A stretch of 46,471 nucleotides of DNA from an uncultured Planctomycetota bacterium (GCA_964555565.1 CAZKTF010000002.1:1-46471); one strand, 5' to 3'. Numbered from the stretch's first letter, positions 21,212 through 34,490 are shown. Made by a program: numbers and translations. The notes: generated by a model from the letters alone, not told the origin.

Positions 21212-21288
21212 GGGGCGGTAGCTCAATTGGTTAGAGTACCGGACTGTCGATCCGGATGTTGGGGGTTCGAGTCCCCTCCGCCTCGCCA
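21212..21288 (+). tRNA. tRNA-Asp (anticodon GTC), copy 2, CCA encoded
   Basis: Identical to copy 1 except for a compensated acceptor pair (GGGGCGG/CCGCCTC). Same D, anticodon and T arms. Confidence 0.95.
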
Positions 21289-21414
21289 CCGTAACCCCGC
21301 TCAAACCCGCGTGTTCCGCGGACTTGGGGCGGAAGGGCGCCCCGGTGGCCCTGGGGTGCGAGGCGATGCATGCTGCAGAGCGCGATTCCGACGCCGCCGT
21401 GGGACGATTCCGGC

Positions 21415-22776
21415 ATGTCGGAAGCCGGAGAGACTCCCGTCCGCGGTCGAGCGGACGACGCCGATGAGCACCGCGTCGCCGTCGCGCTCCGCGGCGCGCT
21501 CGCCACGCGCCGCCACGGGGAGATGCTCTTCGACATGGCGGCGGACCTCCTCGGGCCGGCGGCCCGGGTGGAAGCCCCCGGCGACGGGACCTACCGGCGC
21601 CTGTTCCGGATCGAGGGGCCGGAGCCCCGGTGGGTCATCCCCTGGCCTCTCCTCACCCTCTCCCTGAAGGCTCCGGGGCACCTCGAGATGGAGATCCCGG
21701 GCCTCAAGCCGGCTCCGCCGCGGCTCCCCCGGCCGGGGAAGGCGCCGAACCTCCGGGGTCTCGGGCCGGGCTGGATCACGATCCACGACGGCACGCGCCA
21801 CCTCCAGGTGGGCTACGAGGAGGACGGTCGCTGGTGCGAGACCTGCCGGCACGGCCCCCCGGGGACCCTGGAGGGGCTCCTCCCGGTGCTGGCCGGCGGC
21901 GGCGCCCCGGCGGTGGAGCGCATCGCGGACTTCGTCGCCGGCCTCGACATCGCCCGCCACGGGCCCGCCAGGGCGTACCTCCCCGGCCCGGGAGGTTGCG
22001 ATGCCGCGGGAGCGTGGACCGGCGGTCTCTCCGCCATCCGCGAGGCGCTCGCGCGTGGGACGATCCCGGAGGGCGCCCGGTGGGTCGCCGCCGACGCCTT
22101 CGGAGGCCGGGCGCTGGCCTGGGGCGCGACCCGGGACGAGGCGCTGTTCGCCTGGAGCGCCGAGGTCGAGAGGGTCCGGCCGGGTCCTGGTCCTCCCATG
22201 GGAATGCCGGAGCCCGGACCGGACCTCCCCGACCCGCAGGAGCCCTGGAAGGGGGAGGACCCCCAGGGGGCCCCCGGCCTGGGGTTCGGAATCCACTTCC
22301 CGGGGCCGGTCCCCCTCGGCCCCGCGCCGCCGCCCCCCCCCCCGGAGTCCGTCCCCGGCGCGCTGGTCCCGCTCGGGGACCTCCCGGCCGGCCCCCCGCC
22401 GCTCGGGGAGTGGAGGCGCTTCCTCGGGGCATGCGGGAACACCGTGCCCGCGGCGGTCCGGGCCGATCCCCAGGGATGGACCGTCGTCGGGGATCGGGTC
22501 CTCGCGGCGCTCGGAATCCCCGACATCGAATCCGCGATGGACGAGGCCGATCGCGGGCACGAGATCCTGATGCGGAAGCATTCCCTGCGGCGGCCGCCGG
22601 GGATCCCGGAGCCGCCCTTCCGCGGGCGACACTACCGGCTCGTGGCCGAGACCAGCGGAACGCCCGTGGTCCCCCTCGTGGAGCTGTCCGGGGGGCTGCA
22701 GGAGTCGCGCATCCCGGCCGTGGACGGGGACTCGATCAGCAGCCGGGCAGTGCGCGTGCGGCCGGCGAACGGGTGA
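21415..22776 (+). CDS. Uncharacterised protein, family A (paralog 2)
   Basis: MSEAGETPVRG...EHRVAVALRGALATRRHGEMLFDM... is collinear with 15457-16845. The ATG lies 127 nt after tRNA-Asp copy 2. Contains a C11 run (22333-22343). Confidence 0.7.
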   Translation: MSEAGETPVRGRADDADEHRVAVALRGALATRRHGEMLFDMAADLLGPAARVEAPGDGTYRRLFRIEGPEPRWVIPWPLLTLSLKAPGHLEMEIPGLKPAPPRLPRPGKAPNLRGLGPGWITIHDGTRHLQVGYEEDGRWCETCRHGPPGTLEGLLPVLAGGGAPAVERIADFVAGLDIARHGPARAYLPGPGGCDAAGAWTGGLSAIREALARGTIPEGARWVAADAFGGRALAWGATRDEALFAWSAEVERVRPGPGPPMGMPEPGPDLPDPQEPWKGEDPQGAPGLGFGIHFPGPVPLGPAPPPPPPESVPGALVPLGDLPAGPPPLGEWRRFLGACGNTVPAAVRADPQGWTVVGDRVLAALGIPDIESAMDEADRGHEILMRKHSLRRPPGIPEPPFRGRHYRLVAETSGTPVVPLVELSGGLQESRIPAVDGDSISSRAVRVRPANG

Positions 22777-22800
22777 CGGGCGTCCCGGATCCCCGGGGAG

Positions 22801-24693
22801 TCACGGGGCCGCCCCCGCCGGGGCCCCCCCCTCCGCCGGACGGACCGCCGGCGCCCGCCCCCGCGGCCGGACGTCCCCCATGTGCGTGAGGACCTCGACC
22901 ATGCGCTCGAGCGTCGGGCCGTCCCCGGGGCGGCCGAAGTTGCGGAGCACGATCTCCTTCGCGAAGAGGTGGACGAGGTAGCGCAGGCGACGGGACTCCT
23001 CCGCGGCCGCCTCCGCGTAGTCCCTGTGCGCGGTGTTGTACTCCCACGCGCCGTCGCGCAGCCGCGAACGCCAGGGTCCGCCGGGATCGTGGACCGGCAG
23101 CGGCTCGGGAATCCCCTCGGCGCCGGGGGCGGCCGCGGGGGAATCCACGACCAGGATCCGCGCCTCGGCCTCGGCCCGCACCTCGCCCTGGACGGCCCGG
23201 ACGAGGATGCGCGCCTCGACCGGCTCCTCGGGGGCCTCGTAGTCGGCCCGGTCGCCCCGCTCGCCCAGGATCCCGGGGCCGAGGAGGGTCCACGTGAACT
23301 CCACCGCACCGGCCGCGGGACGCCCGTCCGCGTCCAGCGCCGACGCGCGGAAGGTCCGCCGTCCCCCGGGCGGGAGGCGGACCAGGGAGGGCCGGATCCG
23401 CAGGGAGGCGAGGGGCCCCGGGGGGAACAGGGCGGGGCCCCCGGGGTGGGCGGCCTCCGGGAGGGGCTCCCCCTCCTCCCCGGGCGCGAGCGGTTCGCCG
23501 CCGGCGGCGGGCGGCGCCGCCCCGGGCGAACCCCCGTCCGCGGCCACGCGCCCCCCCGGCTCGCCGCGGCCCCGGATGTCGAACAGTTCGTACTCCGGGA
23601 GGAGACGCGCCATGGGGCGGAAGACGCGCCGGATCTCCCGGGCGAGGTTGCGGTCCTGCTCCTCCCCGCGGCGGTGGTCGTCCGCGGCGAGGGCGCCGGC
23701 GAGGGCGATCTCGAGCCCCCGGAGGGCGTCGAGGAACGCCAGCGCCGCACCGTCGTGGGCGAATCCCCGCCGCGTCCCCGGCGCGACGCTCAGTTCGGGG
23801 AAGTCCACGACGCCCTCCAGGCGCCCGGAATCCCAGGGGGCCCGCGACGTCCCCGACCCGTCGGCCCCGGCGACGTCGTCGAGCACCGTGGTCCCGCCGC
23901 AGGCCAGCGAGACCCTCCCCGGGTCGTCCTCGGGGTCGAGAAGGTAGACCTCGACGCGGGCGGGGTCGCGGCCGGGGACCGGCAGTTCCGCCAGTTCGCG
24001 CAGGAGCCGGCCGCGGAACCTCCGCGGGCGCACGGCGAACTCCTTCATGGAGCGGCCCCGGGCGACCCTGTCGTGGATGCGGACCGCCGCCGTGCGGGCG
24101 AGGAGCTGGCCGCGCAGTTCCGCGGCGAGGTAGGCGTGGAGGCGGCCGGGCCGGATCTGCCGCTCCGCCCCCTCGTGGACGCCGAGGATGGTCACCTCGG
24201 TGAAGGTGGCCGCTTCGTCCAGCCGCCGCGCGCGGGCGCGGCCGAGTTCGGCGTCGGGGGAATCCTCGTGAAGGCGGAGCGTCCAGGCCTCGGAGCCCGA
24301 CACGCGGCTCCGGATCTCCATGGTCCCGCCGACGGCCCAGAATCCCAGCAGGCCGATGCCGTACTGGCCCAGCGCCATCAGCCGCTGGCGCTCGGCGGGC
24401 GTGAGGGACCGCTTGTAGGAGTGGCCGATGGTGGTGGCGATGCGCCGGAGCGCCTCTTCGCGCAAGAGGTCGGGGAAGACGCCGCGCCCGTCGTCCCACA
24501 CGCGGAGCGCCCGGAGGCCCCTCTCGCTGAACCAGGTCAGATCGATCCTCGTGGCCTCCGCGTCGAGCGAGTTCTGGACCAGTTCCGCCACCGCCTTGCG
24601 CGGGTCATGCTGGCTGCGGGCGAGCAGCCGGATGAGGTCGAAGGGGTTCGCCGGCTTGAGCCGGATCCGGCGCGTCTGCGGGGCGCGGGGCAT
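22801..24693 (-). CDS. GHKL-superfamily (MORC/HATPase_c_3-like) ATPase
   Basis: Bergerat-fold motifs in order: ELVQNSLDA (N box), VWDDGRGV (G1), LGQYGIGLLGFW (G2). No HisKA domain and no TM helix. 630 aa. Confidence 0.8.
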   Translation of the reverse strand: MPRAPQTRRIRLKPANPFDLIRLLARSQHDPRKAVAELVQNSLDAEATRIDLTWFSERGLRALRVWDDGRGVFPDLLREEALRRIATTIGHSYKRSLTPAERQRLMALGQYGIGLLGFWAVGGTMEIRSRVSGSEAWTLRLHEDSPDAELGRARARRLDEAATFTEVTILGVHEGAERQIRPGRLHAYLAAELRGQLLARTAAVRIHDRVARGRSMKEFAVRPRRFRGRLLRELAELPVPGRDPARVEVYLLDPEDDPGRVSLACGGTTVLDDVAGADGSGTSRAPWDSGRLEGVVDFPELSVAPGTRRGFAHDGAALAFLDALRGLEIALAGALAADDHRRGEEQDRNLAREIRRVFRPMARLLPEYELFDIRGRGEPGGRVAADGGSPGAAPPAAGGEPLAPGEEGEPLPEAAHPGGPALFPPGPLASLRIRPSLVRLPPGGRRTFRASALDADGRPAAGAVEFTWTLLGPGILGERGDRADYEAPEEPVEARILVRAVQGEVRAEAEARILVVDSPAAAPGAEGIPEPLPVHDPGGPWRSRLRDGAWEYNTAHRDYAEAAAEESRRLRYLVHLFAKEIVLRNFGRPGDGPTLERMVEVLTHMGDVRPRGRAPAVRPAEGGAPAGAAP

Positions 24694-34009: not shown

Positions 34010-34012
34010 CAC

Positions 34013-34435
34013 TTGGCCCGTCCCCTGCCCCGCGGCGCAGTCGTTCGACTGGATGCGACGATCATCGCCGTAGGCAGTGAGGCCGGGGCGACTCACCCTG
34101 TTCTCGCCGTAGTCGTCCAGGCGGACGCCTTCCGCCTCGGGAAGACGGTCGTCGTCGTCCCGTTCACGACGCGACTCGATCGTGCACGGAAGCCGTTCGG
34201 CGTGCTCGTTCCGCGCACAGCCGGCAACGGTCTGGCCGAGGACAGCGTCGCGATGTGCTGGCTCCTATGGTCCATCGACAAGGGTCGGCTGGAGAGACGG
34301 CCGCTTGGGAGGGTCTCCGACGCGACACTGGACCTGATCTCCAAGAACGTCGCTGCGCTCATCGACTACGAACCCGACTACCTCTCCCGCACGACACCCC
34401 CGGCGCCCGGGTCACCACCTGCATCCAGGCCGTAG
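34013..34435 (+). CDS. PemK/MazF-family toxin-like protein (orphan)
   Basis: RGAVVRLDATIIAVGSEAGATHPVLAVVVQADAF...KTVVVVPFTTRL...GLAEDSVAMCWLLWSIDKGRLERRPLGRVSD fits the PemK/MazF pattern. TTG start. No small antitoxin ORF upstream. Confidence 0.7.
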   Translation: MARPLPRGAVVRLDATIIAVGSEAGATHPVLAVVVQADAFRLGKTVVVVPFTTRLDRARKPFGVLVPRTAGNGLAEDSVAMCWLLWSIDKGRLERRPLGRVSDATLDLISKNVAALIDYEPDYLSRTTPPAPGSPPASRP

Positions 34436-34450
34436 GCCCCACGGGGCAAC

Positions 34451-34490
34451 CGACCTGGAGCCGGGGGTCCCGGTCCCCTCGGCCTCGCCA
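34451..34490 (+). repeat. Decayed tRNA-Asp 3'-end copy (att-like, R3)
   Basis: The last 18 nt, gtcccctcggcctcgcca (34473-34490), are identical to 3021-3038. Upstream, cgacctggagccgggggtcccg aligns loosely with cgatccggatgttgggggttcga. The downstream flank loosely resembles 3039-3066. Confidence 0.65.

Follow-up and report, generated by a model that had tools for sequence, protein, structure and literature searches.

An integrase-free array of defence genes among tRNA-Asp-derived repeats in an uncultured Planctomycetota bacterium

How an island comes to bear the scars of insertion at a tRNA gene and no enzyme that could have inserted it is a question raised by a contig of an uncultured Planctomycetota bacterium (GCA_964555565.1 CAZKTF010000002.1:1-46471), the whole 46,471-nucleotide stretch of which (G+C content of 73%) is referred to here as the window. 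A preliminary description, made from the sequence alone, had proposed a composite 13-kb island at 21212-34490, which begins at a complete tRNA-Asp gene and is divided into two units by degenerate copies of the 3' half of that gene. The flagged region is the right part of a larger array of 31.5 kb (2962-34490) that starts at another tRNA-Asp gene. Observed in this array were the scars themselves, one of which keeps its native downstream flank, cargo of a defence-island type and no tyrosine or serine recombinase, and a canonical integrase was observed at the same tRNA in related genomes. The array probably arose by accretion at a tRNA-Asp hotspot, driven by integrases that were later lost, and would then consist of cargo remnants resembling cis-mobilizable elements (CIMEs).

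tRNA-Asp-derived repeats and the search for recombinases

The array holds two complete tRNA-Asp(GTC) genes, named Asp1 and Asp2, and three copies of the tRNA 3' part, named R2, R4, and R3 in their order along the strand (Table 1). Asp2, the complete gene of the preliminary description, was found by ARAGORN and Rfam alike. A repeat search recovered a single five-copy family on the same strand (2996-3038, 5799-5841, 21246-21288, 30858-30900, and 34448-34490). In local alignments to the tRNA, R2, R3, and R4 scored 37.5, 20.5, and 18.0, respectively, and each outscored all of 120 random windows generated from a first-order Markov model and searched on both strands (top score 17.5, mean of maxima 13.1). 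The five co-oriented sequences each exceed what chance would give, and the two degenerate 3'-half copies reported downstream of Asp2 were thereby confirmed.

The likeness of R4 to R2, previously put at 37 of 45 positions, amounts to 36 of 44 aligned positions, with 25 specified bases in common at identical spacing, a pattern that was matched in none of 100 shuffles. R3 ends in the exact 19-mer GTCCCCTCGGCCTCGCCAC of Asp1, one nucleotide longer than had been described and likewise matched in none of 100 shuffles. The downstream flank of R3, which had been described as resembling that of Asp1, agreed with it at 16 of 28 anchored positions, and the local alignment was no better than that of shuffles (z=0.3), so that this part of the description was abandoned. 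Both R2 and R4 extend from the anticodon arm to the CCA end, an extent typical of the attachment (att) sites of tyrosine integrases.

R2 consists of a 50-nt copy of the tRNA 3' part (5792-5841) and 85 nt of downstream flank. Together they are 77% identical to the 3' half of a tRNA-Asp and its 86-nt flank in L020, a related locus described below (z=15.7 for the flank). Such a native flank is to be expected of an original 3' end that has been displaced, and R2 was interpreted accordingly. The right part of the array is reproduced by an independent metagenome contig (L004) that matches 21181-32776 at 99.95% identity; hence, this interval is not an assembly chimera.

The absence of a visible tyrosine or serine recombinase was upheld by every search that was made. 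Among the called genes, Pfam identified no recombinase domain other than that of an ISL3-type transposase near Asp1, and six-frame Pfam searches (E<=1) of the unannotated intervals 32400-34060 and 5570-8170 returned no recombinase. A tblastn search of the window with eight tyrosine integrases (34-100% identity) yielded nothing below E=0.4 and no remnants. Additionally, no recombination, replication, or transfer genes were found in the 13-kb region by Pfam (called genes and six frames) or tblastn.

tRNA-Asp integrases of related genomes

A clade of Phage_integrase proteins (75-100% identity) adjoins a tRNA-Asp identical to Asp2 in all three loci in which it was found, where the integrases P0142, P0144, and P0145 lie beside the tRNA in L003, L017, and L020. 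In L003, which belongs to a Planctomycetota metagenome-assembled genome (MAG), two HTH_17 genes are followed by an integrase gene ending 190 nt upstream of tRNA-Asp, and the tRNA is followed by a gene of family A, an uncharacterised family that also follows Asp2 in the window. In L017 and L020, the integrases (75-77% identical) come after Rep_trans and HTH_17 genes and end 195-211 nt upstream of tRNA-Asp. An HTH_17 (Xis-like) gene was therefore present upstream of each of the three integrases, and Rep_trans upstream of two of them (L017 and L020). More distant integrases (40-42% identity) adjoin no tRNA. Scans of viral contigs with the L003 integrase found nothing. Every short-read (Logan) contig with this integrase breaks off about 27 nt inside the tRNA, a pattern to be expected were the tRNA to occur in more than one context within these populations.

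The Asp2 gene is embedded in a conserved cassette that extends from -63 to +43 around the tRNA, with blastn identities of 96.7% to L020, 93.6% to L017, and 90.9% to L021, a further locus. L020 matches the window over this extent and then diverges on both sides; unrelated genes follow the cassette in L020 and L017, and the DNA that flanks it varies by genome on either side. A promoter-like block (-55 to -1) of the cassette is shared by Asp1, whose gene and upstream block (2907-3039) are 86.8% identical to L020 by blastn. Since the block from -63 to -1 is also common to Asp1, it was taken to be promoter-like. It had been considered as an old att scar and was rejected, as Asp1 shares it with no element upstream. 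The spacer between integrase and tRNA is conserved across the three loci (z=5.6-23.6), and the window shares no conservation beyond -63; the distal spacer upstream of Asp2 was accordingly discarded as a candidate integrase-side arm, since it is not similar to L020 or L017 (z of about 0).

A second conserved point was found at gene X, which encodes a protein of about 208 amino acids with no Pfam match. Positions 6621-7235 of the window are 84% identical in nucleotides to an L020 gene at 1278-1892. As gene X and the tRNA-Asp cassette are both conserved between L020 and the window while the contents between them differ, they bracket a variable slot, the right end of which is 63 nt upstream of tRNA-Asp. 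The slot is occupied in L020 by a 9.4-kb integrase element and in the window by 13.9 kb of defence genes with no integrase.

Origin of the array

The array probably formed through repeated insertions of tyrosine-integrase elements at tRNA-Asp, each of which would have pushed a copy of the tRNA 3' part farther out and so left R2, R4, and R3 behind; we infer the order and number of these insertion events. The integrase, excisionase, and replication genes would later have been deleted and the scars would have decayed, leaving blocks of defence and toxin-antitoxin genes that may be immobile or at best cis-mobilisable. In agreement with a CIME-like remnant, the 13-kb region has an intact tRNA at one boundary, a distal repeat in the same orientation, and no recombination genes, and an integrase family exists at this tRNA, though on its 5' side. 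The earlier proposal of tandem accretion with lost integrases is thus retained for the scars, the cargo, the missing recombinases, and the integrase of the relatives, but not for the pairing of att sites around each unit, where the pairs bounding the units are the worst matched.

Several observations weigh against this origin. Identical att cores were not found at both ends of the proposed units: Asp2 and R4 are identical at 32 of 44 positions with a longest common run of 6 nt, and the longest run common to Asp2 and R3 is 10 nt, while the long cores occur only in the nested pairs Asp1 with R3 (19 nt) and R2 with R4 (16 nt). The usual geometry of tRNA-linked islands places the element on the 3' side of the tRNA. 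The integrases of the relatives, in contrast, lie 190-211 nt 5' of a complete tRNA-Asp, on the side opposite to that of R4 and R3, and the search for a second att copy belonging to the elements of L003, L017, and L020 gave nothing above background. No empty-site, empty-junction, or single-unit allele was recovered in the relatives. The genes for a GHKL ATPase and a DUF418 protein within the array have a core-like G+C content at third codon positions (GC3) of 0.95. Finally, the adjacency of tRNA-Asp and family A may predate a recent insertion, because it also occurs in L003. As matched, intact att sites for each unit are absent, the array is classified as a decayed remnant and not as demonstrably mobilisable.

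Two candidates were dismissed during these searches. The sequence GGGCGGTAGC at the stop codon of gene X scored 10 as an att copy, which is at the background level, and the locus of P0026, an orthologue (60% identical) of the product of the first gene beyond R3, was not syntenic and provided no empty site. With regard to the 5' position, the integrase clade might seat its elements upstream of tRNA-Asp through an element-borne site (attP) that carries a whole copy of promoter and tRNA, although we hold this to be doubtful; either this or an insertion just upstream of the promoter would account for the arrangement.

The place beside Asp2 that an integrase would normally occupy is taken, according to the preliminary description, by family A, and reliance on a non-canonical function had been raised as a more speculative alternative to integrase loss. 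Neither suggestion was supported. The relatives carry an ordinary Phage_integrase at the same tRNA, a finding that the description had named beforehand as evidence against such a function, and their integrase is on the 5' side, not where family A sits. The family is rare: a search of 5.8 billion proteins found 21 homologues, all of them without a Pfam domain, and the member next to Asp2 (A-2) had no match in Pfam, PADLOC, or NCBIfam. A paralogue in the window (A-1) is 54.5% identical to A-2. Two other supposed members were excluded: a product of 5942-7363, which is in the wrong frame and shows no similarity, the true paralogue being that at 15415-16845, and the product of 34506-35813, which also shows no similarity.

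A confident AlphaFold model of family A (AF2, 19 sequences; pLDDT 81.6, pTM 0.79) predicted two domains joined by a Pro-rich linker. Foldseek found no match to it in the PDB (best E=0.19, TM<0.15), and a profile search of PDB sequences found none either (best E=0.66). Of the 22 positions that are invariant in the family, most are Gly or Pro, two are Asp, and two are Arg; among them, an R-H-R-Y, catalytic Ser, or DDE pattern was not evident. Its genomic context was compared across nine other distinct loci, fetched with up to 10 kb of flank. Family A follows tRNA-Asp in only one of them, L003, at a distance of 87 nt (81 nt in the window); the protein is 62% identical to that of the window, and the flank between tRNA and gene is not conserved. 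Two further loci, both from Planctomycete MAGs, have the gene on the opposite strand 3' of a tRNA-Arg(CCT), at 275 nt in L006 (8700-10352) and about 4.6 kb in L009 (10001-16098), which is consistent with cargo of tRNA-linked islands. The remaining six contained no tRNA within the flank fetched. A constant position beside an att site was not observed, as orientation and distance vary. The recurrent neighbours of family A are Ser/Thr kinase, HNH_2, AbiEi_2, SNF2, and DUF4143 genes, which indicates variable, defence-type neighbourhoods. Family A is best read as cargo and not as recombination machinery, and the claim that it stands in for an integrase was not borne out by these data. Two near-identical loci, L011 (9646-10343 and 14449-14634) and L012 (7265-7962 and 12068-12253), carry a frameshifted family A gene and another fragment of the family, which lies close to AbiEi_2 and to an SNF2 helicase with 34% identity to that of the window.

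The two SEC-C proteins of the array (SEC-C-1 and SEC-C-2) are 37% identical. SEC-C-2 combines an N-terminal SEC-C zinc motif with an unnamed domain of about 400 amino acids, and this C-terminal domain belongs to a broad family of 1461 clusters, in which it is fused to DUF6930 and DUF7309 or to PRiA4_ORF3. The predicted structure (pLDDT 81.8) gave local matches to OB-fold barrels only, and in a profile comparison with solved proteins the zinc motif alone matched. None of this points to a recombinase, and the SEC-C proteins are likewise read as cargo. Scans of viral contigs with SEC-C-2 found nothing. The divergent order of SEC-C, att, and family A that the island would have if circularised had been likened to the order of the two families at 8-17 kb; the paralogues there lie 5.6 kb apart with four genes between them, and such a module was not supported. 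The DNA of the two SEC-C genes is 86% identical over 95 nt that cover the start codon and zinc motif (9652-9746 and 32368-32462), which could reflect constraint on the motif or gene conversion. Additionally, a PRiA4_ORF3 gene (16929-17480) comes after family A-1, and P0182 unites the SEC-C-family domain with PRiA4_ORF3 in a single polypeptide, which hints at a functional link between the two families.

Three other explanations were weighed. R3 and R4 could be decayed extra tRNA-Asp genes that arose by tandem duplication or gene conversion, with the genes between them having arrived otherwise. The array does contain two complete tRNA-Asp paralogues whose promoters and downstream flanks are homologous, and GGCCGTAG upstream of R3 corresponds to tRNA positions 3-10; it stands 35 nt before the T-arm GGGGG, compared with 46 nt in the tRNA, such that R3 could be a pseudo-tRNA with a deletion. 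However, GGCCGTAG coincides in part with the stop codon of mazF and its match may be due to chance, the extent of R2 and R4 is that of a classic att site, and R3 and R4 have in common the T-arm variant CGGGGGTCCCGG, which is not that of the tRNA. With all copies co-oriented and intergenic besides, such an origin seems unlikely to us. The integrase-less blocks could also still be mobile, in cis or in trans, by means of a co-resident tRNA-Asp-specific integrase element, as in CIME accretion-mobilisation, which is an established concept (PMC7563491). Such elements are present at the identical tRNA-Asp in L003, L017, and L020, exact cores are kept in the nested pairs, and the ends of the Logan contigs fit alternative junctions or a second tRNA copy. 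The 46-kb window contains no integrase, though, the att pairs at the ends of the proposed units have decayed, and the independent contig has the same integrated structure, so that we consider continued mobility quite unlikely.

It appears highly improbable that family A, whether by itself or together with the SEC-C protein, acts as a novel recombinase or targeting factor in the integration of blocks at tRNA genes. Its short distance to tRNA-Asp in both the window and L003, its occurrence 3' of tRNA-Arg(CCT) in L006 and L009, and a predicted fold that matches nothing known would fit this role. It is opposed by the six of nine loci that lack a nearby tRNA, the varying orientation and distance, the absence of an att copy near A-1, and the lack of a catalytic residue pattern or a profile match to solved proteins, as well as by the OB-like barrel and varied fusions of the SEC-C family and by the presence of a canonical integrase beside this tRNA in the related loci. 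Integrase-driven accretion with subsequent integrase loss accordingly remains the preferred explanation.

Gene content and known systems

Gene calls were based on GC3, and the names were assigned from Pfam, PADLOC, and NCBIfam. The outer flanks have GC3 values of 0.94-0.98, while most genes between Asp1 and R3 range from 0.77 to 0.92. To the left of the array are FecR/HEAT, Smr, and MFS genes and a tRNA-Val. The left variable slot contains, in order, a decayed AbiE, SEC-C-1, NYN, AbiEi, an STK-AAA_16-TPR protein (STAND kinase), family A-1, PRiA4_ORF3, DUF488, a metallophosphatase, and AbiEi_2/AbiEii. For the 13-kb region, the previously described GHKL, SWIM-SNF2, DUF418, AAA_14/DUF4143, SEC-C, and MazF genes agree with Pfam. 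In contrast, an ERCC4 fragment was not recovered, as no Pfam match was found in six frames of 32400-34060. The stop codon of the DUF4143 ATPase lies 1 nt ahead of R4, and about 550 nt with no gene call separate SEC-C-2 from a hypothetical protein of 275 amino acids. Beyond R3, the first gene, some homologues of which carry esterase-like names from their sources, is followed by HNH, PLD, AbiE, TPR protein, flavodoxin-like, and radical-SAM genes.

Table 1. Features of the window and integrase regions of the related loci.
Feature	Position	Strand	Basis or remark
tRNA-Val	1417-1490
tRNA-Asp(GTC) copy 1 (Asp1), left anchor of whole array	2962-3038	+	ARAGORN, Rfam
ISL3-type DDE transposase	3548-4699	+	Pfam; between Asp1 and R2
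Fic/DOC protein	4700-5569	+	Pfam; between Asp1 and R2
R2, tRNA-Asp 3'-part copy with native flank	5792-5926	+
Gene X	6621-7244
Left variable slot, gene X to Asp2	7236-21148		Pfam, blastn with L020
SEC-C-1	8164-9822	-	Pfam
Family A-1	15415-16845
Conserved Asp2 cassette	21149-21331	+	blastn, alignment
tRNA-Asp(GTC) copy 2 (Asp2)	21212-21288	+	ARAGORN; Rfam 69 bits
Family A-2, 468 aa, alternative start 21415	21370-22776	+
GHKL (HATPase_c_3) ATPase	22801-24693	-	Pfam, NCBIfam
SWIM zinc-finger SNF2 helicase	24845-27532	+	Pfam; partial PADLOC DpdE/ZorD/DrmD-like helicase-core matches
DUF418 (YeiB-like) membrane protein	27870-29267	-	Pfam, NCBIfam
AAA_14/DUF4143 ATPase	29349-30854	+	Pfam; PADLOC PDC-S01, 1.4e-43
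R4, degenerate tRNA-Asp 3'-part copy, nearest to R2	30856-30900	+
SEC-C-2	30946-32454	-
Hypothetical 275-aa protein, low GC3 (0.79)	33017-33844	+	No Pfam match
MITE-like element, 169 nt	33841-34009
MazF/PemK-like toxin	34013-34435	+	Pfam
R3, outermost degenerate tRNA-Asp 3'-part copy, final 19 nt as in Asp1	34448-34490	+
First gene past R3, large Planctomycete/Gemmataceae family	34614-35813	+	5998 homologues; GC3 0.95
Integrase regions of related loci	L003 8489-9913; L017 4696-6203; L020 10001-11390	Same as tRNA

The cargo is typical of defence islands and includes three AbiE loci, MazF, Fic, NYN, the STAND kinase, SNF2, the PDC-S01 ATPase, HNH, and PLD. The full complement of Zorya, Dpd, DISARM, or BREX was not found by PADLOC, where the SNF2 core alone matched DpdE, ZorD, and DrmD, with no partners. 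The decayed AbiE copy (7378-8100) has an intact paralogous pair at 38116-39231; it contains a 152-aa open reading frame that is 64% identical to 38116-38568 and a truncated AbiEii N-terminus. In the right flank, a 55-nt direct repeat (42238-42292 and 43899-43953; 84% identical) ends in a GGTGCCTGGCACC hairpin; both copies are intergenic, and the repeat may be an element of the repetitive extragenic palindromic (REP) type or a terminator.

The miniature inverted-repeat transposable element (MITE)-like sequence of the preliminary description was substantiated by terminal inverted repeats of 25 nt that are 92% complementary, with ends that start with CTAG. It occurs once in the window and in none of the fetched loci. 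Judged by its length (12757 nt) and its start at window position 21181, the independent short-read contig ends inside the element at about 33938. The element is directly upstream of mazF, the place expected for an antitoxin gene, and no MazE-like gene was called upstream of MazF.

An island with att scars and no apparent recombinase can be explained here without an exotic mechanism, as ordinary integrase elements sit at the same tRNA-Asp in related loci. The locus documents a hotspot at tRNA-Asp, with variation on either side, among Planctomycete-like bacteria that have been little studied, and the 5'-side position of the relatives' integrases may bear on how such elements select their target and restore it. 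Family A and the SEC-C-domain family, both uncharacterised, are found repeatedly in defence neighbourhoods and merit functional tests; if family A were, against expectation, a new tRNA-associated recombination or targeting protein, it would account for integrase-less islands.

Attachment at tRNA-Asp is also known from the myxophage Mx8, which integrates into the trnD loci (tRNA-Asp) of Myxococcus xanthus and has its attP inside the int gene. As there, tRNA-Asp genes occur here in more than one copy and would be the targets of a tyrosine integrase, while an arrangement with attP inside int was not seen here. The integrative plasmids of Streptomyces, represented by pSAM2 and the actinomycete integrative and conjugative elements (AICEs), carry rep-xis-int-att modules. 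The elements of L017 and L020 are similarly built, in this order, of Rep_trans, HTH_17, and a tyrosine integrase followed directly by a tRNA-derived att region, although in these loci int is followed by a complete tRNA-Asp with its promoter instead of a partial 3' copy; the rep-xis-int module is absent from the window.

Among streptococci, CIMEs and their accretion-mobilisation involve att-flanked blocks that have no recombination or transfer genes (PMC7563491). Like those of the window, these blocks lie in tandem at one target gene, measure 1.2-13 kb, and carry cargo genes. They are, however, defined beside functional integrative and conjugative or integrative and mobilizable elements with intact att sites (PMC7563491), whereas the window has no functional partner and its unit-bounding att copies have diverged. 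The tycheposon islands of Prochlorococcus are seeded at tRNA genes and contain partial-tRNA scars and degenerate elements (Hackl et al., 10.1101/2020.12.28.424599). The window differs from them in its phylum and tRNA, in retaining no integrase fragment, in having two complete tRNA-Asp genes inside the array, and in the position of the relatives' integrase on the 5' side of the tRNA. The two nevertheless share a full-length proximal tRNA with scattered partial copies, units separated by a partial tRNA only, degenerate elements that lack an integrase, and cargo that includes defence genes.

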